NCBI GenBank assembly: GCA_963820865.1 | Contig: CAWGBZ010000005.1 | Span: forward strand, 42,867-66,866 | DNA from: an uncultured Verrucomicrobiae bacterium | Lineage (GTDB): Bacteria; Verrucomicrobiota; Verrucomicrobiia; Chthoniobacterales; Terrimicrobiaceae | Length of the DNA stretch: 24,000 nucleotides | Direction: 5' to 3' | In this document: piece after piece, positions 891 to 11,847 of the stretch | Position numbering within the stretch: the first letter of the stretch is position 1 | Layout of the letters: each line of letters opens with the position of its first letter | Program-made: the position numbers and the translations under genes | The notes under the pieces: model-generated | What the model saw: only the letters and a program-made list of their open reading frames with translations | The model's database searches: none | Told to the model about the DNA's origin: nothing

Positions 891-1628
891 ATGCACGGTT
901 TCGCCGACAAACCGCATAGGATGCCCGAAACGATCGTGGGCCTATTTTGGACGGCGGTTGGCGCATATGCCGCAACCGGCATCGCCTTCGCGGTTCCATT
1001 CGTGCTATCTTGGTCGGCGCGACTCGATCCGGGAGCACGGGCGGGCAGCTGGGGGTTTCGGCTGGCCATCCTGCCGGGCGCGGTCGCCCTTTGGCCGTTG
1101 CTCGGCTGGAAAACTCTGCGCGCTTTTCGCGAAACCGTGTCGCCGCCCGATCCCGAAGAACCCGTTCCTCCGGCCACGCAGCGCCTGATCCACGGCGTTT
1201 CGATGCTCTGCCTCACGTTGGTGGTTCCAGTCATTGGCAGTCTGGCAATCCTCTACCGTCCCGACGAGCGACTCTCCACAGAACGTCAGGTTGGGCCCAG
1301 GCCGCTTGCCGATTCACTAAACCTCCGAAACCCAGTCCCTGAAGGATTGCCGGTTCACGCCTCCCTGCGGACAGACGGCTCGCAAGACCAAATTGAACTC
1401 AAGGTATCTCGCTCGATTGACGAGCCAGTCGTGGCGTTGTTCTGGAGCCCCCAGACACACCCCGACCGCCCTGCCCCGGACGCCATCTTTCTGGGTTCGT
1501 TATGGGGACCAACCAAGCTCTTGTTCGACCTCCCCCGAGAGAATCATCAATCGCCCGGGACGCTGTTCTTTGTCGCTTTGACAGACGAACAGCGGGTAGT
1601 CGCCAAGCTTTCGCTCGACCCGCTCTAG
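891..1628 (+). CDS. hypothetical membrane protein (about 3 TM helices plus a soluble C-terminal domain)
   Basis: 245-aa ORF with hydrophobic segments (IVGLFWTAVGAYAATGIAFAVPFVL, WGFRLAILPGAVALWPLLGW, GVSMLCLTLVVPVIGSLAILY). The stop is 2 nt before the ATG of the next gene. An alternative start at 921 (MPETIV) is possible. I recognise no family. Confidence 0.5.
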   Translation: MHGFADKPHRMPETIVGLFWTAVGAYAATGIAFAVPFVLSWSARLDPGARAGSWGFRLAILPGAVALWPLLGWKTLRAFRETVSPPDPEEPVPPATQRLIHGVSMLCLTLVVPVIGSLAILYRPDERLSTERQVGPRPLADSLNLRNPVPEGLPVHASLRTDGSQDQIELKVSRSIDEPVVALFWSPQTHPDRPAPDAIFLGSLWGPTKLLFDLPRENHQSPGTLFFVALTDEQRVVAKLSLDPL

Positions 1629-1630
1629 GC

Positions 1631-3451
1631 ATGTCGCTCGCTTACCGTGCTCTTGGTTGGAACCGCCAAAAACGGCTCTACGACCTCGCGATGGCATCCG
1701 CCCTGCTCCTGGGCTTGGTCGTCTACGGCGGGACGGTTTATTCTTTCCACCCGGACACCACTGCCGAAACATTCGTTATCCGATTCAGCGCGCTTGCAGC
1801 GGTCCTTCTCCTTCATGTCATTCTGGCCATCGGACCGCTGGTCCGCCTCGACTCACGATTCCTGCCGCTGCTTTATAACCGGCGCCATCTGGGGGTGATG
1901 ATGTTCCTACTGGCGCTCTTGCATGGAAGTTTCGCCATCGTCCAGTTTCACGCCGGAGGCAATTTGAATCCTCTCATCAGCGTCCTGACCTCCTATCGAC
2001 GCGACTACCTTTCGTTCTCCTCCGGTCTCGATCAGATCGTGCACTTTCCCTTCGAGGCCCTTGGACTGACCGCCCTTTTGATACTATTCGTCATGGCCGC
2101 GACCAGCCACGATTTCTGGCTTAGGAATCTGGGTCCATCCTTCTGGAAGACGATGCATATGCTCGTCTACCTGGCCTATGCACTCCTGCTGGCTCATGTC
2201 TTTCTCGGGGCGTTTCAGTCGGAGAGAAACCTCATCTTTCCTTTGATCCTGGGAATCGGATTCGCGGTGCTTCTCATCCTGCATGGGGCGGCCTTCGCCA
2301 AGGAGTTCACCTTCGACCGTGCCGGTGGGCCTGGGTCACGCGCCGGGTTTGTTCTTGCGGCCAAGCGCGCCGATCTGGTCCCGGAGACCGGCAAGGTCGT
2401 CGTTGCTGCAGGGAAGAGGATTGCTCTGTTTCTCCATGACGGAAGGATCTTTGCCCTTTCCAATGTCTGCCAGCATCAAGGCGGGCCGTTGGGAGAAGGA
2501 CGCATCGTGGCGGGTTGTCTGACCTGTCCATGGCATGGCTATCAATACCAAGTCGAAGATGGTCACAGCCCACCCCCTTTCACGGAAGGGGTGCCGACGT
2601 ACGAAGTCCGATTGTCTGGCGAAGATATCTATGTTTCGACGCAAGCGCTGCCCCTCGGCACCAAGTCACGCGGTGCGATCGTTGACGGATTGGTCAACTC
2701 GGTCGCCGCCGCGCAGCCAGCGTTCTATATCGGATGGCAGTCGAAATGCCCGGCTCAGCTCGGCAGGCATTCACAAAGGTTCTTCGCCCTCGTGCTCGCC
2801 GCGACTGCCGCTCTATTCTTCATGGCGGCCAGGTTCCAGAACCCTGTCGATCCCGGGACGTTTGAGTTTGGCGGTGAGCGAACCTTCGCAGGAACCTTGC
2901 TGGAGTCGCCTCTCCCCATCCTGCACGTGCCGGGACCGGGAGACAGATCCGGCATGAACTTCCTGCTGGTTGGGTCGGGAAAGTTCGGAGCCTCTCATAT
3001 CGTGCGAAGACTCGACCGCCACTCGCTCCGCTTCACGGGGAGCCTGATCCATCGGAATGGGATGGTCATGATCCAGATGAGCAGACCTGAATCGCTGGAA
3101 GTCATCAACGCGCCTTCAACAATTCCTCCGCCGGTAGTCTCGCTCGGAAGGTCAACGTTCCGCGGGGAACTGGTCGATACCAAATGCTTCCTCGGCGTGA
3201 TGCGCCCCGCGACCGGAAAGGTGCATCGCGCTTGCGCCGTTCGCTGTCTGAGCGGCGGCGCGCCTCCCGCGCTCCTGGTCAGAGACGAACAAGGCCATGG
3301 CACCGCTTTGCTTCTCGCCGCCTCGCCTGACCAGCCGCTCGACATCGACCCGGAACTGGCCGCGCGCACACTTGAAGTTCAGGGGAGCCTTGAGCTTCAT
3401 AGCGGCTTGCCAATCCTCCGGGTTCATTCTTGGCGCGTGGTGGAGGAGTAA
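1631..3451 (+). CDS. fusion protein: MsrQ/YedZ-like ferric-reductase heme-b membrane domain + Rieske [2Fe-2S] domain + TM segment + Cys/His-containing C-terminal domain of unknown function
   Basis: I chose the in-frame ATG at 1631 (MSLAYRALGW...), directly after the upstream stop. The MsrQ-like motifs are YNRRHLGVMMFLLALLHGSFAI and ATSHDFWLRNLGPSFWKTMHMLVYLAYALLLAHVFL. The Rieske motif is CQH-x16-CPWH (CQHQGGPLGEGRIVAGCLTCPWHGYQY). The C-terminal part contains DTKCFLGVMRPATGKVHRACAVRCLSGGAPP. Confidence 0.75.
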   Translation: MSLAYRALGWNRQKRLYDLAMASALLLGLVVYGGTVYSFHPDTTAETFVIRFSALAAVLLLHVILAIGPLVRLDSRFLPLLYNRRHLGVMMFLLALLHGSFAIVQFHAGGNLNPLISVLTSYRRDYLSFSSGLDQIVHFPFEALGLTALLILFVMAATSHDFWLRNLGPSFWKTMHMLVYLAYALLLAHVFLGAFQSERNLIFPLILGIGFAVLLILHGAAFAKEFTFDRAGGPGSRAGFVLAAKRADLVPETGKVVVAAGKRIALFLHDGRIFALSNVCQHQGGPLGEGRIVAGCLTCPWHGYQYQVEDGHSPPPFTEGVPTYEVRLSGEDIYVSTQALPLGTKSRGAIVDGLVNSVAAAQPAFYIGWQSKCPAQLGRHSQRFFALVLAATAALFFMAARFQNPVDPGTFEFGGERTFAGTLLESPLPILHVPGPGDRSGMNFLLVGSGKFGASHIVRRLDRHSLRFTGSLIHRNGMVMIQMSRPESLEVINAPSTIPPPVVSLGRSTFRGELVDTKCFLGVMRPATGKVHRACAVRCLSGGAPPALLVRDEQGHGTALLLAASPDQPLDIDPELAARTLEVQGSLELHSGLPILRVHSWRVVEE

Positions 3452-3655: not shown

Positions 3656-5200
3656 ATGACGATGCCCGAAAAAGCCCGAACACGCCTGGCGCTCGCCGGC
3701 TTGAGCCTGAGCGCCTTTGTCGCCTATCTGGACTTTGCGATTGTTAACACGGCGCTACCCTCCATGCAGCGAGAACTGACCCTAACTTTCGTGCAGCTCC
3801 AATGGGTCATGAACATTTTCGTGCTCGCTCTCTGTATTTTCATGGTGAACATGGGGCGCTTCGGCGACATGTTTGGCAGGCGCCTGTTGCTCTACATCGG
3901 TTTGACGTGCTTTGCCGCGGCTTCGCTCCTGGCAGGCCTGGCGCCGAACGGTCAAACATTGATCGCGGCTCGAGCCTTCCAAGGGGTTGCCATCACGATG
4001 ATCGTGCCCTCGAGTGTCGCGCTGGTCTCCCAGACGGTTTCTCCCAGCGAGCGCGGACGGGCGATTGGGATTTGGACGAGTGTCACCGGCGTGGGATTAG
4101 CCATCGGCCCGGTCGTTGGCGGCCTCTTGACGAGCGCGCTGTCCTGGCGATGGATATTCTTCGTCAATATTCCGATCGTGGTGATCGCTTTTTCGCTCTG
4201 CTTTGTGAGCGTTCGAGACGCTGTCAAAAGCAACCATGAAATGCGGGTCGACTGGGCGGGTTTTTTCTTGATGATCGTCGGGATCGGTTCCCTGATTTGC
4301 GCCGTCGTCCAGGGTCCGGAATGGGGATGGGCGTCACGACCGACTCTCGCCTTAGCTCTGACCGCCGTTGTCTCTCTCGGCTTGCTTCTGGTAGTCGAAT
4401 CGAAAGTCAAGTCCCCCATCCTTGATCTGGGGCTATTGGCCAACCGCGGGTTTCTTGCCGGAGCTTTCGCAAACTTCACCCTCATGGGCTTCGCCTATTC
4501 CGCGTTCTTTCTCATGCCTCTGTTCCTGCGGGGCATCGTCGGTCAGGAACCCTACGCTATCGGGTTCCTTATGCTTCCAATCACCGTGTTAATCGTCATC
4601 GTTGCACCGATCGCCGGAAGGATGGTTGACACCAAGGGAGCCAAGCTTCCGGTTCTCCTTGGTCTCTTGTCCCTGGCTGTGTCGGCCCTCATCCAGTCGA
4701 CGCTCCGAGACGACAGTTCGCTAGTTCATATTCTCCTTGGGTTCGTCTTTGTCGGCCTTGGTTGGGGCCTGGTGTTGAGCTCGGCGGCGTTTTCCGCCAT
4801 CTCCTCGCTTCCTCCCACCCTTTCCGGCACGGCTTCGGGTGCGCTCTGGACGTTTCAAAACCTGGGTGGATCCATTGGCCTTGCCATTGCCGGGACCATT
4901 TTTCGACATGCGGAGCGAACGTCCCTGATGACGGGCCTCGGCGCGTCAGACATTCATTTGACTCCAGAGCAACAGGATCTGATAAAGAGCCTGCTGGGCG
5001 ATTCGAACGAAGCCAGGCAGATCCTCGGTGAGTTTCCCAGCTCTCTCGCCGAAAGCATTTGGCCGCTTTTTCGGAACGCGTTCATGCAGGGCTACTCCTG
5101 GTCGTTTCTTTTCCTCCTGGGTCTGTCACTGGCAGCATTCCTGGTTGTCGCTGTCCTGATGAAAAATATTGCCAGGAAGGAACCGCCTCCCTCGTCGTGA
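3656..5200 (+). CDS. MFS transporter, DHA2 (EmrB/QacA-like, 14-TMS) family drug/H+ antiporter
   Basis: 514 aa and multi-TM throughout. N-terminal signature: LDFAIVNTALPSMQRELTLTFVQLQWVMNIFVLALCIFMVNMGRFGDMFGRRLLL. Motif C-like segment: GIWTSVTGVGLAIGPVVGGLL. Confidence 0.85.
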   Translation: MTMPEKARTRLALAGLSLSAFVAYLDFAIVNTALPSMQRELTLTFVQLQWVMNIFVLALCIFMVNMGRFGDMFGRRLLLYIGLTCFAAASLLAGLAPNGQTLIAARAFQGVAITMIVPSSVALVSQTVSPSERGRAIGIWTSVTGVGLAIGPVVGGLLTSALSWRWIFFVNIPIVVIAFSLCFVSVRDAVKSNHEMRVDWAGFFLMIVGIGSLICAVVQGPEWGWASRPTLALALTAVVSLGLLLVVESKVKSPILDLGLLANRGFLAGAFANFTLMGFAYSAFFLMPLFLRGIVGQEPYAIGFLMLPITVLIVIVAPIAGRMVDTKGAKLPVLLGLLSLAVSALIQSTLRDDSSLVHILLGFVFVGLGWGLVLSSAAFSAISSLPPTLSGTASGALWTFQNLGGSIGLAIAGTIFRHAERTSLMTGLGASDIHLTPEQQDLIKSLLGDSNEARQILGEFPSSLAESIWPLFRNAFMQGYSWSFLFLLGLSLAAFLVVAVLMKNIARKEPPPSS

Positions 5201-5862: not shown

Positions 5863-6606
5863 CTAGGCGGCTCGAGAAATGGCGCAGGGAAACGCCAGAT
5901 CCAGCGACGCTTGGAAGCTTCGGGAACAAGAACAGGGCGGGGCAGGAACGTAATGGATTGCCGCGCGCGAACCTCGGACACTTATTTCGGTATAACTGAC
6001 CGTGCCGGCCTCGGGACGATGCATGCACATCGAGAAGGGGCCCGCTTCCGGCACATGACTTCGATGAAGTGCCCTTAGCGTCGGCAAATTCAAAGCGCCG
6101 TCCGAAATCTGCTCGCAAACCTTCCGCCTGACGTCATCTGCTTTTGCTTCATCGAAGCCCGACGAGAACCAATGCTGGCGAGTCCATGGTAGCGGGATGT
6201 GTTCAACCCGCTCAGCGCCAGAGCGCCATTCCCAAAGGGAGCGCTCCGCCAAGCTTATGGCAACCAGGCGAAAGGGATTCATGCGCTCGCAGGGAAGTTG
6301 CCTGACGATCCGGGCGGCTGCCTGAGGGCTGTGCGCCGACAGAACGGCCCGAACCACCTCGCCGCGGCTCACCAGGTCTTCGCCGGCGCGGTCAGGCTGC
6401 GAGTGCCAGTTGAGGAGCGAGAACGCCATCCCGACGCTGTTGATGCCAACCCACGTTCCACCGCTCTGCTCCCGCGGGTAAAGCATAGCCAACCCGTCGC
6501 GCTGAGACACCTCCGGCGGCAGGGCCGACGGACGCGAGAACAATTCATCCCGGTTCATCGCCAGGACGAAACCATCGTCGCGAGGAAGAAAGGTCACACT
6601 GCACAT
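5863..6606 (-). CDS. NRDE-family protein (TANGO2-like, Ntn-type fold with N-terminal Cys)
   Basis: The protein starts MCSVTFLPRDDGFVLAMNRDE, i.e. Met-Cys at the N-terminus plus the eponymous NRDE motif. It is 247 aa. The start lies 3 nt after the stop of the upstream ATP-grasp gene. Confidence 0.8.
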   Translation of the reverse strand: MCSVTFLPRDDGFVLAMNRDELFSRPSALPPEVSQRDGLAMLYPREQSGGTWVGINSVGMAFSLLNWHSQPDRAGEDLVSRGEVVRAVLSAHSPQAAARIVRQLPCERMNPFRLVAISLAERSLWEWRSGAERVEHIPLPWTRQHWFSSGFDEAKADDVRRKVCEQISDGALNLPTLRALHRSHVPEAGPFSMCMHRPEAGTVSYTEISVRGSRAAIHYVPAPPCSCSRSFQASLDLAFPCAISRAA

Positions 6607-6609
6607 GGT

Positions 6610-8229
6610 TCAATCCGCGAAGGGGTGACAAAGACTGGCTCGTCGATAGCGCCGCCATTCCGTGAGGATTTTCGTGGCCGCATCCGGACGATATCCGCGT
6701 CGTCGGTTCGCCGCACCAATGGCAAAGACAAGCTCCCATTGCTGGAACAGGATGCCATATGCCTCGCGCAACGACTTGCTGGAGTCATAGGCACTCGTAG
6801 CCTCGGAGGCGGCCCCATTCAACTCCAGAATTTTAAACCCTCGACCCGCCCGAAATTCCTCGATCGACCGGAAGCGCACGTCATATCTTCCGATGAAGAA
6901 ACCGGGCAACCGGGAGGAAATCGCGTCGATTTGTTCCTCGAGCTCGCTGCTCCAGAAACGCATGCCATCACGAAAGATGCATCCCTGAGCGTGGTTTCCG
7001 GCCTCGACGAGTCGCAAGCTTTCGCCATTCTCCAGCACCCGAGTTCGCCAGCGATCGAACCTTCGCAGATAGGTGTCGGCCAGCAGCGAAGCGCGCGCAT
7101 CCGCCCGAATTAACGCCTCCACCGTGCTTCGGCCATCACCGACGACTACCGGAAACACCTTTTCGGTGATGGCGAAAATCTTGCCCGCGGGTTGATTCGG
7201 GAAACGATAGTAGAAGATTCCCGCTTCGTACGGCCCGTAGATGTACTCCTGCGCCACGATCGAAACGTGAACCTCACGCAAATACTCTTCCGCCCGGGCG
7301 GCGCTCCTCGCGACCCGAAAGCCGCTTCCTCGTTGGGCGACATCGGGCTTCAGGACAATCGGAAAATCCGAGCCAAGAATGCCCATGCCCTCCTCAAAGA
7401 CCTTTAGCCGGTCGGCCACCGCTCCGACCGGGATCAGGACACTTGCCGCGACCCATTCTGCACTGCCTTGCGTAAGAGCCTCAAGGGTCTCGTGCTTGGA
7501 TTCGCCGATCAATCCGCCGGTATGCATTCCGGGATTCGCGCATGTCGGCAGGCTCAAACTCCGGTACTTGAGAGAGAGTCTTAGATAGTGGATCCCAATC
7601 GGAAGATAAAATAACCAGGCCGGCCAGAACTCCCATTTTAACCACCGTTGAAATGCGGCGGATGCTCGAAGTCTCCGAGCGGCTGGGAGCCAGCGAGTCC
7701 GCGTCAAAAATAGTGCCAGCACCAGAAGACCGAACACCACCAACTGTAGGACGCCGTTCAGATCGCGAGCCAGATCCGTCCGCACTTCAAACCACCGGAA
7801 AAAGCCGAAAATCAATCCGACCCAACCGGCGGCCAGAAAGCCAGTGATCACGGCAAAGCGCGCGATCGGCATCCCCAAGAGCCCCGCGGCCAGGAAAGTG
7901 GGGAGTCTCGTGCCGGGAACAAAGCGGCAGACGACCAGCGCCCACAGCCCGTGCCGGACGAACCAATCTTCGCCCTTTTGAAGACTCCTTGTCTCGCCAC
8001 GGAGAAGGAGCGCGCTTACCACCGGGCGTCCGCAGAACCGTGCAAGTCCGTAAAGACCGAGATCGCCGACCCAGATGCCGAGGAAACATGCCGCGAAGGC
8101 AAACGACCAGGGAAGGTTGCCCAGCGCTGCCAGGAAGGCGCCCGTGAGCGTGGCCGAGTCCTCCGAAAGAAGTGACAGCAGGAATATCCCCGCGCCTCCC
8201 GCCGCATGATACCACGGCTCCGAAGTCAT
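6610..8229 (-). CDS. fusion protein: N-terminal DedA/VTT (SNARE-associated) membrane domain + C-terminal ATP-grasp carboxylate-amine ligase domain
   Basis: N-terminal part of about 200 aa: multi-TM with a DedA-like LLSEDSATLTGAFLAALG ... VVCRFVPGTRLPTFLAAGLLGM. C-terminal part of about 300 aa: ATP-grasp-like, with FPIVLKPDVAQRGSGFRV, VAQEYIYGPYEAGIFYYR, VVVGDGRSTVEALI and FKILELNGAASEATSAYD. Confidence 0.8.
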   Translation of the reverse strand: MTSEPWYHAAGGAGIFLLSLLSEDSATLTGAFLAALGNLPWSFAFAACFLGIWVGDLGLYGLARFCGRPVVSALLLRGETRSLQKGEDWFVRHGLWALVVCRFVPGTRLPTFLAAGLLGMPIARFAVITGFLAAGWVGLIFGFFRWFEVRTDLARDLNGVLQLVVFGLLVLALFLTRTRWLPAARRLRASAAFQRWLKWEFWPAWLFYLPIGIHYLRLSLKYRSLSLPTCANPGMHTGGLIGESKHETLEALTQGSAEWVAASVLIPVGAVADRLKVFEEGMGILGSDFPIVLKPDVAQRGSGFRVARSAARAEEYLREVHVSIVAQEYIYGPYEAGIFYYRFPNQPAGKIFAITEKVFPVVVGDGRSTVEALIRADARASLLADTYLRRFDRWRTRVLENGESLRLVEAGNHAQGCIFRDGMRFWSSELEEQIDAISSRLPGFFIGRYDVRFRSIEEFRAGRGFKILELNGAASEATSAYDSSKSLREAYGILFQQWELVFAIGAANRRRGYRPDAATKILTEWRRYRRASLCHPFAD

Positions 8230-8235
8230 CCATCT

Positions 8236-8817
8236 TCAAGCCGCCCGTTGGTCCCGGGCAGGCTCCCCGTTTAGGGACGATCCAAAACGATCACCGTCCG
8301 GGACGGCCGGCTCGCGATGCTTGATGGTCGCGGGAGCAACTCCAAAGCCTTCCGGAAGGAGGACGCCCAGCATGCCACACATCACGCGAATCAACGCGTA
8401 GTGATGGATCGCGTGAACGATGCAAAACATCATCTCGCGACCGACCGTCGAGATCGCGGACGGAGGCTCCTCGATCGCATAGGAAACTTTGCTGCGAACC
8501 CGGATCGGACATCCCAGCGTCCAGTTGCCGATTCCTTCACTCCGTTGCAGCAGATTTCTCGTCTGGTCCAGGGCAACATCTCGAATCGTCTCGACGCGGG
8601 CGTCTCGCCTCCGATGGTCGTAGTTCACTTCCGCCGCACCGAGCGCATCAAAAACGCTCCGGAAGTGGTCCAGGCAATGACGGTAGTGACCACCTACCGA
8701 AGAGTTGAAGGCCGCGGGGACCTTCGCGCAGTAGGCTGCATCATCCAGAACACCGAGGAGAACTTCTCCCTGTCGCAGAATCTCCCTGGTCGCGTTGAGA
8801 ATAGTTCGTTCGTTCAT
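8236..8817 (-). CDS. DinB-like (DinB_2 superfamily) metal-dependent protein
   Basis: Four-helix-bundle-type His motifs: VGGHYRHCLDHFRSVF near the N-terminus and MMFCIVHAIHHYALI near the C-terminus. The ATG overlaps the doxX stop (ATGA at 8814-8817). Confidence 0.7.
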   Translation of the reverse strand: MNERTILNATREILRQGEVLLGVLDDAAYCAKVPAAFNSSVGGHYRHCLDHFRSVFDALGAAEVNYDHRRRDARVETIRDVALDQTRNLLQRSEGIGNWTLGCPIRVRSKVSYAIEEPPSAISTVGREMMFCIVHAIHHYALIRVMCGMLGVLLPEGFGVAPATIKHREPAVPDGDRFGSSLNGEPARDQRAA

Positions 8818-9233
8818 CTGAGCAGGAGGTTGCCAATCACTGGAATGGTCCGGCGGTAGATAAAAAGGAGGATTGCCGAGCAGACAGCCACGGCCACCGC
8901 CAACCCGAAGAGCAGACCGTGGTCGCCCTGCACTTCGATCCCGAGCACACTAAGATGACTGAGAATAGCACCGCCAATCACGCCGAGAGCCAGCCCGGCT
9001 CCAAGCCAGGTCAGACCCGGCACGAACAACAAGATCGCCGCAATTAGTTCCACGATTCCCGATCCGATGCGACCCCATGGCTCGATGCCAACCTTGGTGA
9101 AGATATAGACGGATTCCGGCGCCGCAGAGAATTTGAAGAAGAGCGTCTGCAGCAAAATCGTGGCTGCAACGATTCGGCAAATCCATGCAACGACCACTTC
9201 GGTTTTGGTAAGTTCGTTCATAGGCTTTTCCAT
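8814..9233 (-). CDS. DoxX-family integral membrane protein
   Basis: 139 aa with 4 TM helices: ICRIVAATILLQTLFFKFS..., GSGIVELIAAILLFVPGLTWLGAGLALGVIGGAILSHL. This is a DoxX-like pattern. Confidence 0.7.
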   Translation of the reverse strand: MEKPMNELTKTEVVVAWICRIVAATILLQTLFFKFSAAPESVYIFTKVGIEPWGRIGSGIVELIAAILLFVPGLTWLGAGLALGVIGGAILSHLSVLGIEVQGDHGLLFGLAVAVAVCSAILLFIYRRTIPVIGNLLLR

Positions 9234-9486: not shown

Positions 9487-10200
9487 ATGCAAGATGTAAT
9501 TACGAACAACACGAGCGTGACTCGATACGTGGAAGCGAATCCTTATCCCTGGCCCTATGATGGCGATCTGCGTCCGGAGATCACTGCCGTGATCGTCATC
9601 GACATGCAAACCGACTTCTGTGGCAAGGGAGGATACGTGGACAGCATGGGCTACGACCTCTCCCTAACCCAGGCACCCATCGAACCGATCAAGCGTGTCC
9701 TCAAGGCGGCTCGCGAGGAGTCATTTCAAATTTTTCATACGCGCGAAGGGCATCGACCCGACCTTGCCGATCTCCCGGCGAACAAGCAATGGCGCAGCCG
9801 GCGCATCGGAGCAGGCATCGGCGACCCAGGACCGTGCGGTCGGATCCTCACCCGCGGCGAACCTGGCTGGGAAATCATTCCCGATCTCGCTCCGGCACCC
9901 GGGGAGAGCATCATCGACAAGCCGGGAAAGGGCTCGTTCTATGGAACGGACCTCGACATGCTTTTACGCCAAAGAGGTATCCGAAACATCGTCCTCACAG
10001 GCATTACCACGGACGTCTGCGTGCACACTACCATGCGTGAAGCCAATGATCGGGGCTACGAGTGCCTGATCCTCTCCGATTGCACCGCAGCCACGGACCC
10101 CGGCAATCACGCCGCTGCGCTCAAGATGGTGACCATGCAGGGAGGCGTCTTCGGCGCCGTGGCCGACTCGAACGCATTCATAAAAGCCATTACCGCCTGA
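9487..10200 (+). CDS. isochorismatase-family cysteine hydrolase (amidohydrolase of the RutB / N-carbamoylsarcosine amidase / biuret hydrolase type)
   Basis: D-K-C triad context: [45 protein letters not shown]. The protein is 237 aa. Confidence 0.85.
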
Positions 10201-10545: not shown

Positions 10546-11304
10546 TCAAGGAATCCATCCACCTGCGGCTTGAATCGGAGCCAGGCTTTTCGCGGGTCTC
10601 ACCCAGGCCGCCAAACCCGCGACGGGAACAGTCGCATCTGGCAAGACCAACTGCGCAACGTAGACACCATCGGCCTCGGGTTGCAGTTCGCCCGAGACGA
10701 GAGCCAAGGCCACAAACTCATGGTGAAGTTCTCGCCCGGCATTCTCCCCGCGGCGAACAGCGGTCCGCTGATCAGCAGCCAAGGCGACCACCTCCGCAAT
10801 CAGCGGTTCACGCCATTCGCGAGACGCGGCGAAGGACACTACCAACGTCCCGTCCTCTCTTGCGCTGACCCGCAGTCTTCCTGGCGTCTCGCTCGACGCA
10901 GATGGGAAGCCTCGCGCGGGGCGCCACTCTTCTCCGTTCAGGACGAAGGCCGGCGTATAGACTGTGCTCGCGTTCCAATTCTCGGCGTAGGTGCGCTGAC
11001 GCTGCGTGAACTCCGGCAGTGCAAACCTGTCAACCCAGCCGAGACGGTCCCAGTAGTCCACATGAAACGCAACCGGCACAAACCGCTTCCAAAGGGCGGG
11101 GTTATCCTTCAAGGAAGTGAGCCATGCCTCAGCCGGCGGGCAACTGCTGCACCCTTCGGAGGTGAAGAGTTCGACCAGCGCCACCTTCGTATCCGGGCTT
11201 TCGAGAGTGAACGCTCGATTTGCTCCGGGCAGGTTCGAAGAAGCCGTCATGATCACGAAGAGAGCGACCCCAATCAGCCGCGCGCACATTGAACGGAATA
11301 ACAT
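10546..11304 (-). CDS. DUF1223-domain protein (secreted thioredoxin-fold protein)
   Basis: Signal-like N-terminus, then the family hallmark VALVELFTSEGCSSCPPAEAWL and HVDYWDRLGW. Confidence 0.8.
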   Translation of the reverse strand: MLFRSMCARLIGVALFVIMTASSNLPGANRAFTLESPDTKVALVELFTSEGCSSCPPAEAWLTSLKDNPALWKRFVPVAFHVDYWDRLGWVDRFALPEFTQRQRTYAENWNASTVYTPAFVLNGEEWRPARGFPSASSETPGRLRVSAREDGTLVVSFAASREWREPLIAEVVALAADQRTAVRRGENAGRELHHEFVALALVSGELQPEADGVYVAQLVLPDATVPVAGLAAWVRPAKSLAPIQAAGGWIP

Positions 11305-11397: not shown

Positions 11398-11847
11398 TTA
11401 CTTGCCCTTCTTCTCGATGATTGAAGGCCAATTGGCGTCAGCCTTCCTCAGGTTTCCCTCGGTGTCAGCGCTAAAATCCTTGCGAACCTTAAGACTATAC
11501 TGAAGCAACAAACGTCCGTTCACGATCTGAAAGGCATTCGGATCGACGGGCGCCGTGTAACCGCGCGAAACTGCCCACGCACAGAATCCGCCGAACTGCG
11601 GTTCATACTTGGCCGGATTCGTGTCAAAAGCCGCCTTGTTCTCGGCAGACGCGAAATAATAGATGACGCCGTCGGCCTTGCTCTGAAATTGCGCGTCGCC
11701 TCTCACCGCTTTGTCTTGTGTGAAGTAAGCCACGGGATCGTACCCCTTAATGCCCACGCCGCTCCGGTCAACATTGAGCAGGGATTTGGCGGAGGCTGCC
11801 GAGATCATGGCGAGAGCTAGAATTGCTGTCAGGGCGATATTTCTCAT
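11398..11847 (-). CDS. YHS-domain-like periplasmic protein (Cys form of the family annotated as YHS domain-containing (seleno)protein)
   Basis: Signal peptide MRNIALTAILALAMISAASA, then GIKGYDPVAYF..., YYFASAENKAAFDTNPAKYEPQFGGFCAWAV. Confidence 0.7.
   Translation of the reverse strand: MRNIALTAILALAMISAASAKSLLNVDRSGVGIKGYDPVAYFTQDKAVRGDAQFQSKADGVIYYFASAENKAAFDTNPAKYEPQFGGFCAWAVSRGYTAPVDPNAFQIVNGRLLLQYSLKVRKDFSADTEGNLRKADANWPSIIEKKGK

Follow-up and report, generated by a model that had tools for sequence, protein, structure and literature searches.

A conserved bacterial gene cassette built around a VTT::ATP-grasp fusion, with a possible role in aminolipid head-group amidation

The ATP-grasp enzymes GshAB and Ddl and the G-domain of cyanophycin synthetase CphA1 work on N-acylated amino acids or peptides, whose α-carboxylate they first phosphorylate and then join to an amine. 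Ornithine-type aminolipids, which are N-acyl amino acids, carry a free α-carboxylate at the membrane surface. MprF, a lysyl-phosphatidylglycerol synthase/flippase, uses aminoacyl-tRNA and forms an ester. The function of the human disease protein TANGO2 is disputed, with heme trafficking, acyl-CoA binding, and a Cys N-terminal-nucleophile (Cys-Ntn) hydrolase activity all under discussion. Here, we describe a gene cassette located in a 24-kb window, the whole stretch of DNA analyzed, on contig CAWGBZ010000005.1 of an uncultured Verrucomicrobiae bacterium. The cassette encodes a VTT/DedA membrane domain fused to an ATP-grasp domain (the VTT::ATP-grasp fusion), accompanied by a DinB-like protein, a DoxX-like protein, and an NRDE protein of the TANGO2 family. 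All positions given below are those of the window.

Several described lipid pathways involve chemistry of the type considered here. Taurine transfer to the carboxyl group of ornithine lipid, giving cerilipin, is ATP-dependent and has been known since the 1970s, while its gene "remains unknown" (PMC12971839). Ser-Gly and Orn-Ser-Gly head groups also exist, and glycine lipid is an intermediate of flavolipin (PMC12971839). A third ornithine-lipid pathway combines the ATP-dependent N-acylating enzyme OlsH with the α/β-hydrolase O-acyltransferase OlsI (PMC12493201; PMC12971839), so ATP-dependent ligases and α/β-hydrolases do act in aminolipid synthesis.

The cassette occupies the minus strand of the window and comprises four genes from the list of open reading frames (ORFs), given here with the three parts of the fusion protein (aa, amino acids):

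8814-9233, minus strand: DoxX-like protein, 139 aa
8236-8817, minus strand: DinB-like protein, 193 aa
6610-8229, minus strand: VTT::ATP-grasp fusion, 539 aa
7660-8229, minus strand: VTT/DedA polytopic membrane domain, fusion residues 1-190
7444-7659, minus strand: juxtamembrane aromatic-rich module, fusion residues ~191-262, WEFWPAWLFYLP...ANPGMHTGGLIGESK
6613-7443, minus strand: ATP-grasp ligase domain, fusion residues ~263-539
5863-6606, minus strand: NRDE/TANGO2 protein, 247 aa, N-terminus MCSV...AMNRDE

Junctions computed from the ORF coordinates consist of a 4-nucleotide (nt) overlap between the DoxX stop and the DinB start (8814-8817), a 6-nt gap between DinB and the fusion (8230-8235), and a 3-nt gap between the fusion and NRDE (6607-6609). 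The ORF list agrees exactly with the four packed, co-directional genes reported in the initial annotation, a reading of this window made from its letters and ORFs. Judged by the spacing, a single transcript and stoichiometric coupling of the four genes are plausible.

The cassette is a real and widely conserved bacterial gene system for which we found no earlier description, composed of parts from known superfamilies and with a predicted chemistry that has biochemical precedent. Full-text searches of open-access papers yielded no description of the domain combination, consistent with the initial annotation, which knew of no characterized system of such composition. Fusion homologs number more than 2,383 at a length of ~535-540 aa, including one at 98% identity and named proteins from metagenome-assembled genomes (MAGs) at 73%. 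This number of full-length homologs rules out an assembly artefact, named earlier as a possible refutation, as the origin of the fusion. A scan of one genome per species and an exhaustive search with the ATP-grasp module (residues 190-539) reveal the scale of this unannotated system, with fusion relatives in 260 representative species genomes and 2,824 module cluster representatives (50% identity) at E<=1e-3, 1,089 of them at E<=1e-30. Of the 260 genomes, the best 80 consist almost entirely of Verrucomicrobiota and Alphaproteobacteria MAGs (Rhizomicrobium, Dongiaceae); a few bins bear other labels.

Gene order was compared in 162 neighborhoods, annotated by phmmer and jackhmmer and additionally by unbiased clustering of the flanks. 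These comprise a close clade of 82 loci and a distant clade of 80 metagenomic loci from an independent scan seeded with long fusions; 45 and 18 of these, respectively, are termed well flanked, having no less than 4 kb of sequence upstream and 2.5 kb downstream (individual loci and proteins are cited below by L and P numbers). In the close clade, DinB is positioned directly upstream of the fusion in 77 of 82 loci and NRDE directly downstream in 78 of 82, both on the same strand, and the misses fall mostly at contig ends. The core of the cassette is therefore DinB – VTT::ATP-grasp – NRDE, found in ~94% of the 82 loci, and the presence of the same flanking genes in 77-78 of them places this arrangement far beyond chance. 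Co-occurrence extends across Verrucomicrobiota, Alphaproteobacteria, and unbinned metagenomic lineages, which answers the call for a gene-neighborhood check that accompanied the initial annotation. The close clade has a same-strand DoxX gene in 48 of 82 loci (~58%), mainly in Verrucomicrobiota, and the distant clade in 27 of 80. The four-part composition originally proposed thus stands for DinB, the fusion, and NRDE and fails for DoxX, a small membrane protein of the DoxX family that is an accessory rather than a core member.

Proteins carrying the ATP-grasp module cluster at lengths of ~350-400, 530-550, 800-935, and 1,120-1,130 aa. By Pfam, the long forms are α/β-hydrolase (ABH)::VTT::ATP-grasp, encoded in 24 of 80 distant-clade loci, and TANGO2::ABH::VTT::ATP-grasp. 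In the mega-fusion P0194, the TANGO2 domain forms the very N-terminus and opens with Met-Cys, the placement needed for an N-terminal-nucleophile enzyme. Separated states also occur, with VTT, NRDE, and ATP-grasp encoded by three consecutive genes downstream of DinB in L140, L147, L157, L159, and L161-L163. A single frame without an internal stop encodes DinB::VTT::ATP-grasp in L050 (5377-7599, plus strand), a Chthoniobacteraceae MAG, representing either a true three-domain fusion or the loss of a stop codon by sequencing. Because these Rosetta-stone fission and fusion states join the cassette proteins to one another, they show the proteins to be probable working partners. The N-terminal extensions of P0136 and P0159 (683-724 aa) were tested for a DinB domain, which is not there, leaving L050 as the only DinB fusion. 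P0124 and P0130 were dropped as genuine stand-alone ATP-grasp proteins, as they lie at contig ends and may be incomplete.

The ABH domain of the long fusions retains a conserved catalytic serine region of the GxSxG type. Since an extra hydrophobic helix precedes the hydrolase (residues ~22-42 of P0140 and ~268-285 of P0194), ABH and the ATP-grasp domain could face different sides of the membrane.

The N-terminal part of the fusion, first annotated as a DedA/VTT-type membrane domain, matches the Pfam family VTT_dom (PF09335) over residues 32-141 with E=5.5e-13 and 49.9 bits vs a cut-off of 33.9, along with weak UptA/DedA matches in NCBIfam. In the AlphaFold2 (AF2) model, this part is helical, with a predicted local distance difference test score (pLDDT) mostly above 83. 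Residues E23, D24, G51, W53, G55, D56, R64, R102, P105, G106, and R108 are invariant across 24 sequences. Six of these, E23, D24, R102, P105, G106, and R108, we take to be the membrane-embedded acidic and basic residues of the DedA re-entrant-loop motifs. That these charged, DedA-type positions do not vary speaks for a functional membrane domain rather than a mere anchor.

Between the membrane domain and the ligase lies the juxtamembrane module, the most conserved stretch of the fusion, with the consensus WEFWP...ANPG...GGxxGESK and the invariant residues W199-P203, F207, Y208, P210, N232-G234, G238, G239, G242, S244, and K245. The AF2 model resolves it into short helices only (pLDDT 88-97). 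It is kept in stand-alone ATP-grasp genes and in every fusion architecture. The canonical α/β N-terminal (A) domain of ATP-grasp enzymes, which contributes to substrate binding, is absent, and residues 191-262 take its place. Because this aromatic module replaces the usual N-terminal domain, the modeled fusion appears as a variant architecture within the ATP-grasp superfamily. The module presumably binds both the membrane interface and the substrate.

For the C-terminal half of the fusion, Pfam gives no ATP-grasp match at threshold. NCBIfam returns weak matches to cyanophycin synthetase (2.5e-5) and to Ddl, GshAB, and CPS-like models, and a PDB profile search aligns residues 276-376 to residues 244-342 of CphA1 (E=1.6e-3). 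Foldseek with the AF2 model of the fusion (pLDDT 86.3) yields 319 PDB structures at E<=1e-3; ATP-grasp enzymes fill the first 50 places, led by CphA1 (E=7e-10). The structural matches of the domain are CphA1/CphA2, GshAB, Ddl, and CPS, spanning E values from 7e-10 to 1e-6. The ATP-grasp residues K294, G301-S-G-F304, Q327, R448, D450, E469, and N471 are invariant in 24 homologs and also in the distant clade. With NCBIfam, PDB profile, and model-based structure searches in agreement, the assignment made in the initial annotation is confirmed at the level of sequence and predicted fold, as is the conservation of the Mg/ATP residues: the domain is an ATP-grasp with intact catalytic motifs, a putative amide ligase predicted to be cytoplasmic.

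The ligase shares the ATP-grasp fold, the Lys, the Gly-rich loop, R-x-D, and E-x-N with the CphA G-domain, GshAB, and Ddl, yet identity to them is only 12-21% over ~260-300 aligned columns. In contrast to CphA, it has neither an N- nor an M-domain, and its A domain is replaced by the module tied to VTT. Cyanophycin synthetase identity was rejected, as the alignment is confined to the G-domain region, NCBIfam scores 22.5 bits vs a cut-off of 850, and the N-G-M architecture with its Mur-ligase-like M domain is missing. Current database names for the central protein go no further than "DedA" or "VTT domain-containing protein". MprF offers an analogy in layout, likewise combining an N-terminal polytopic domain of the lipid-translocation type with a C-terminal cytosolic enzyme, which in MprF decorates lipid head groups with an amino-acid-derived moiety. 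The two are not homologous, however, and differ in their chemistry (an aminoacyl-tRNA ester in MprF vs a putative ATP-grasp amide) and in their membrane part (a flippase fold vs DedA/VTT).

The membrane domain and the ligase might together act on a polyprenyl-phosphate-linked envelope precursor such as lipid II, with DedA binding the carrier and a Ddl-like ATP-grasp adding an amino acid. The best NCBIfam matches of VTT are models of the undecaprenyl-phosphate transporter UptA (E=1.7e-9), and Ddl is among the structural matches. The UptA scores reach 38 bits vs a cut-off of 250, however, and no peptidoglycan or glycan-assembly genes recur in the 162 neighborhoods, whereas the aminolipid genes OlsB and OlsA do, making action on such a precursor improbable.

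The NRDE protein matches the TANGO2 family (PF05742) with E=1.9e-14 and 54.9 bits vs a cut-off of 22.6, in addition to a weak AAT match in Pfam. Both Cys2 and the motif N18-R19-D20-E21 are conserved in at least 97% of 71 orthologs, which upholds the N-terminal Cys noted in the initial annotation; the C-terminal half conserves S148-S149, H181/H184, and C194-x-H-R197. The protein shares with human TANGO2 the Pfam family match, Cys2, and the NRDE motif, and the TANGO2 structure is lipid-amide-hydrolase-like, resembling the Cys-Ntn enzymes acid ceramidase, NAAA, bile-salt hydrolase, and AAT (PMC13044924). The pairwise alignment to human TANGO2 (8sv7; E=2.3e-5), however, is restricted to the N-terminal half (~residues 13-119), and the TANGO2 active-site residues Asn157 and Lys166 lie outside it. 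Its motifs mark the NRDE protein, a core member of the cassette, as a putative Cys-Ntn amidohydrolase or transferase.

The DinB-like protein falls just below the Pfam threshold, with DinB_2 at E=8e-5 and 23.5 bits vs a cut-off of 24.8, and a PDB profile search with its sequence returned nothing meaningful (dynein light chain etc., E>0.1). Many close homologs carry precomputed PF12867/PF05163 matches. Invariant elements comprise GGHYRHCLDHF (H44, H47, C48, D50, H51), Y66-D67-x-R69-x-R71, and H135/H138/H139. A His triad of the metal-binding type is thereby present, as H44, H47, H51, H135, H138, and H139 are all invariant and provide six candidates for three positions. In Foldseek, ranks 1-31 for the AF2 model (pLDDT 81.8) are all DinB/YfiT structures, with 2f22, 3dka, 3gor, 6iz2, 1rxq, 8f5v, and 5wk0 among the top matches and a target-normalized TM-score of up to 0.77. 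Homologs carrying the family matches, invariant His clusters, and a model matching DinB/YfiT together secure the assignment as a DinB/YfiT-fold putative metalloprotein and core member directly upstream of the ligase. The His clusters and the predicted four-helix bundle agree with the His-motif DinB-fold protein originally placed ahead of the fusion. BstA, mycothiol S-transferase, and the EgtB N-domain share the four-helix-bundle DinB fold and conserved His residues with it. Identity to the DinB/YfiT S-transferases is only 9-17%, and GGHYRHCLDHF with its Cys48, together with YDxRxR, marks a separate subfamily.

The cassette family recurs beside genes for aminolipid synthesis. In L087 and L088, Acetyltransf_5 (OlsB-like) and PlsC-type (OlsA-like) genes lie directly upstream of and on the same strand as the gene for P0140, an ABH::VTT::ATP-grasp protein, and the OlsA-like gene overlaps the start of the P0140 gene. 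L027 contains a contiguous OlsB-OlsA-DoxX-DinB-fusion operon. In L083, the mega-fusion P0194 has DinB upstream and is adjoined by a divergently oriented gene for an OlsF-like bifunctional acyltransferase. Distant-clade gene orders include OlsB-OlsA-DinB-NRDE-ABH::VTT::ATP-grasp-DoxX and OlsB-OlsA-ABH::VTT::ATP-grasp, as well as a divergent OlsB beside (YHS-)DoxX-DinB-VTT-NRDE-ATP-grasp and OlsB followed co-directionally by DoxX. An OlsB/OlsA pair lies within 6 kb of the cassette in 15 of 82 close-clade loci, and 25 of 80 distant-clade loci carry a gene for an OlsB-type N-acyltransferase (and for an OlsA-type O-acyltransferase); when well-flanked loci are counted, OlsB is present in 11 of 45 and 12 of 18, respectively. 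The Ols neighbors match the NCBIfam OlsB and OlsA models over their full length, with E values of 1e-33 to 1e-43. By a rough estimate, the chance expectation for one or two Ols-type genes in a genome of several Mb is well below 1%. The unbiased flank search found no amine or thiol biosynthesis genes among the recurrent neighbors that could have pointed to the second substrate. OlsB-, OlsA-, and OlsF-type genes are recurrent operon partners of the cassette family, and the window operon is joined to Ols clusters by family association, not by its own content.

As a separate observation, a TMEM164-family gene (7436-8209, plus strand) adjoins the OlsF-like and TANGO2::ABH::VTT::ATP-grasp genes of L083, in this one locus only. 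Members of the TMEM164 family are lipid acyltransferases in animals.

From this context, we propose, with a confidence slightly short of even, that the cassette carries out ATP-dependent amide ligation on the head group of an aminolipid, with VTT handling the lipid and NRDE serving as amidase or transferase. The module would act on a membrane lipid, the likeliest being an N-acyl-amino-acid lipid of the ornithine-lipid type made by OlsB/OlsA. Ligation of an amine to such a head group is proposed because of the chemistry of the ligase relatives, the carboxylate of the aminolipids, and the existence of known head-group amides. The initial annotation had offered two example functions: lipid head-group modification is favored, because OlsB/OlsA genes and ABH fusions recur beside the ligase, whereas a soluble low-molecular-weight thiol lacks specific support.

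In the proposed mechanism, the cytoplasmic ATP-grasp domain would be held at the membrane surface by the VTT/DedA domain and the invariant aromatic module. It would phosphorylate a head-group carboxylate, with the free α-carboxylate of an N-acylated amino acid as the natural candidate, and an amine would attack the resulting acyl-phosphate, creating a new amide and thereby an extended or neutralized head group. Following an MprF-like logic, VTT would either offer the lipid to the ligase or carry the product across the membrane. The N-terminal Cys of the NRDE/TANGO2 protein would attack the amide of the same lipid, leading to its removal or editing or to acyl or amido transfer; alternatively, NRDE is possibly an ammonia-donating amidotransferase. 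The ABH domain fused in other lineages would add to or replace the NRDE function, acting on the ester-linked acyl chain, and the DinB-fold metalloprotein would perform a further step.

The same partners would fit an alternative, fourth aminolipid synthase, in which ATP-grasp activates a fatty acid and N-acylates an amino acid as a GH3-like OlsH analogue, ABH acts as an O-acyltransferase like OlsI, and NRDE is an acyl-transferring or deacylating partner. The OlsH/OlsI pathway uses precisely such an enzyme pair (PMC12493201; PMC12971839), and both the frequency of ABH::VTT::ATP-grasp and its conserved serine region fit this assignment. A second full synthase would be redundant, however, as the fusion very often shares an operon with OlsB and OlsA. 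The clade of the window, moreover, is devoid of an ABH domain, and the nearest ATP-grasp relatives ligate amino-acid or peptide carboxylates rather than fatty acids. We therefore regard a synthase of this kind as unlikely.

Head-group ligation itself has several points against it. No OlsB/OlsA gene was found in the 24-kb window, none for OlsB is in view in 34 of the 45 well-flanked close-clade loci, and the alphaproteobacterial loci show no Ols gene. Scores of the OlsB-like neighbors stay under the NCBIfam equivalog cut-offs and thus do not fix an amino-acid specificity, and shared ancestry among the related loci means that the counts exaggerate how many independent events lie behind them. The sequence discloses neither carboxylate nor amine, and substrate, reaction, and partner roles are those that we infer. 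Finally, the redox-type neighbors described below (DoxX, YHS, DUF1223, TlpA-like, AhpC-like, and ferric-reductase::Rieske) are unexplained by simple head-group ligation.

If head-group ligation holds, the DedA/VTT domain would be the membrane arm of a lipid-modifying enzyme. The family would then provide a candidate enzyme class for orphan lipid reactions, among them taurine transfer to the ornithine-lipid carboxylate (PMC12971839), an ATP-dependent formation of a head-group amide of the kind an ATP-grasp would catalyze. Elongation of glycine lipid to Ser-Gly and Orn-Ser-Gly forms is another possible orphan case. The bacterial TANGO2 homologs share their context with VTT, an amide ligase, ABH, and aminolipid synthases, which yields a testable hypothesis on the substrate class, and the cassette may hint at the role of human TANGO2.

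The DoxX-like protein of the window is matched below cut-off by DoxX_2 (E=4.7e-4, 20.7 bits vs 26.3) and DoxX (E=1.3e-3, 19.8 bits vs 23.6), and its orthologs in L006, L097, and L144 (DoxX) and L027 (DoxX_2) score above cut-off. Adjacent OlsB-DoxX pairs run in one direction in L113, L119, and L120 and diverge in L161-L163 and L169; three of the divergent pairs have a YHS gene interposed. The adjacency of OlsB and DoxX suggests that this DoxX subfamily has a link to aminolipid metabolism, either in place of or in addition to thiol or quinone redox chemistry.

The conserved unit extends beyond the stretch delimited in the initial annotation (5863-9233), adding YHS, DUF1223, and ferric-reductase::Rieske genes, all three of which are present in the window:

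11398-11847, minus strand: secreted YHS (seleno)protein-domain protein, 149 aa (NF041384 E=1.1e-42, above cut-off; Pfam YHS)
10546-11304, minus strand: DUF1223 protein with a CSSC motif and a signal-like N-terminus, 252 aa (Pfam DUF1223 E=4.3e-45)
1502-3451, plus strand: ferric-reductase-like transmembrane domain::Rieske [2Fe-2S] protein, 649 aa (Pfam Ferric_reduct and Rieske), convergent with the cassette

The YHS protein is encoded in 37 of 82 close-clade loci by jackhmmer (35 on the same strand) and in 42 of 82 by flank clustering, and its gene abuts DinB in loci without DoxX. DUF1223 is a same-strand neighbor in 19 of 82 close-clade loci, and L002 contains a contiguous six-gene operon, YHS-DUF1223-DoxX-DinB-fusion-NRDE. 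Ferric-reductase::Rieske genes lie near the cassette in 12 of 82 close-clade loci (11 by clustering) and 11 of 80 distant-clade loci (jackhmmer), or ~14%, including L002, L086, L089, L120, L136, L140, and L161-L163. The ferric-reductase::Rieske protein of the window carries a C-terminal extra portion of ~270 aa, which is a separate gene without a Pfam match in L086 and other loci. A TlpA-like thioredoxin gene recurs in 16 close-clade loci by flank clustering, and AhpC-like and OsmC genes (OsmC in L086) recur as further redox-type neighbors.

These neighbors bear on a soluble low-molecular-weight thiol or conjugate as the product, which would be made by a GshB-like ligase and handled by a DinB S-transferase, an EgtC-like NRDE protein, and DoxX as thiol-redox partner. 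The recurrence of DoxX, YHS, DUF1223, TlpA-like, AhpC-like, and OsmC genes agrees with such a pathway, as do the GshAB-type ATP-grasp enzymes among the best structural matches of the ligase, the match of the DinB model to the mycothiol/bacillithiol S-transferases 8f5v and 5wk0, and the invariant Cys48 beside the His ligands. The ligase, by contrast, is always linked to the membrane, being fused to VTT or encoded beside a VTT gene, and the biosynthetic neighbors are lipid acyltransferases rather than the cysteine ligases, glycosyltransferases, and deacetylases of thiol pathways. No cysteine-ligating or sulfur-inserting family of the Gsh, Msh, Bsh, or Egt type was found among the recurrent neighbors of the 162 loci or in the window, and a GT4 gene occurs in L001 only. 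A soluble thiol product is accordingly improbable.

The bacterial TANGO2 homolog HtpA was reported to bind heme and to aid cytochrome c maturation, in a paper stating that bacterial TANGO2 homologs had not been investigated before (PMC10470608). Combined with the recurrence of ferric-reductase::Rieske nearby, this report raises a role for NRDE in trafficking heme to the heme-b ferric-reductase::Rieske protein, its adjacency to the ligase then being incidental or regulatory. NRDE, however, is fused to ABH::VTT::ATP-grasp in some lineages and encoded between the VTT and ATP-grasp genes in others, its catalytic-type Cys2 and NRDE motif are invariant, and the ferric-reductase gene is restricted to the small share of loci given above. 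The crystal-structure study of TANGO2, moreover, judged heme binding to be non-specific (PMC13044924). Heme trafficking is therefore very improbable.

Returning to head-group ligation, the redox neighbors keep a thiol- or oxidation-related variant alive, involving a sulfur-bearing head group or a link to oxidative damage of lipids. In its most specific form, which we consider a speculative and unlikely extension, the cassette would make and translocate an undescribed lipid class, an OlsB/OlsA-type aminolipid whose head-group carboxylate is amide-extended by ATP-grasp, the amine possibly carrying a thiol, sulfinate, or sulfonate group (cysteamine- or taurine-like). If this were true, DinB, DoxX, YHS, DUF1223, and Rieske proteins would be users or recyclers of a membrane-anchored, redox-active head group. 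The family would then supply the enzyme class that ATP-dependent amidation of head groups still lacks (cerilipin and perhaps aminolipids with peptide head groups), and the ancestral role of TANGO2 would be that of an amidase or transferase on N-acyl-amino-acid lipids.

A gene for an extracytoplasmic function (ECF) sigma factor lies beside the cassette in 23 related loci (e.g., L087, 9641-10345, plus strand), and a small Cys-rich ORF does so in 12 loci (e.g., L042, 923-1333, plus strand). The small ORF may encode the anti-sigma factor of the neighboring ECF sigma, and the recurrence of the two near the cassette hints at envelope-stress regulation.

The remainder of the window places the cassette in its genomic setting. 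The nearest relatives of the window sequences belong to Terrimicrobiaceae/Chthoniobacterales (Verrucomicrobiota), and G+C content is 55-62%. No tRNA genes or Rfam families were found in the window. A consensus scan for promoters and terminators around the operon was uninformative, giving a single promoter-like site inside the YHS gene and 13 terminator-like sites vs 6.8 expected, mostly intragenic, with one located ~220 nt downstream of NRDE. Further features of the window are as follows:

3656-5200, plus strand: DHA2-family major facilitator superfamily (MFS) efflux transporter (TIGR00711 E=5e-78)
9487-10200, plus strand: biuret amidohydrolase BiuH (NF050097 E=6.6e-126, above equivalog cut-off)
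18368-19276, minus strand: Vps62-like domain gene (PF06101 E=2.5e-28), in a low-G+C region
21101-22480, minus strand: amidase-signature gene (PF01425 E=2.6e-99)
21173-23146, plus strand: 657-aa ORF overlapping the amidase-signature gene, no family match
22864-23487, minus strand: ECF-type sigma factor gene, following the amidase-signature gene

The BiuH gene splits DUF1223 from DoxX and looks like an insertion into an ancestral operon, because DUF1223 and DoxX are contiguous in the related L002. The DHA2-family transporter gene occupies the space separating ferric-reductase::Rieske from the cassette's 3' end; since L002 has no such gene at that position, it is probably a further local insertion. 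Local G+C falls to 0.50 at 18001-19000 vs 0.55-0.62 elsewhere. The Vps62-like gene, whose family is known chiefly in eukaryotes, may have been gained horizontally. The 657-aa ORF at 21173-23146 is most likely a high-GC shadow ORF.

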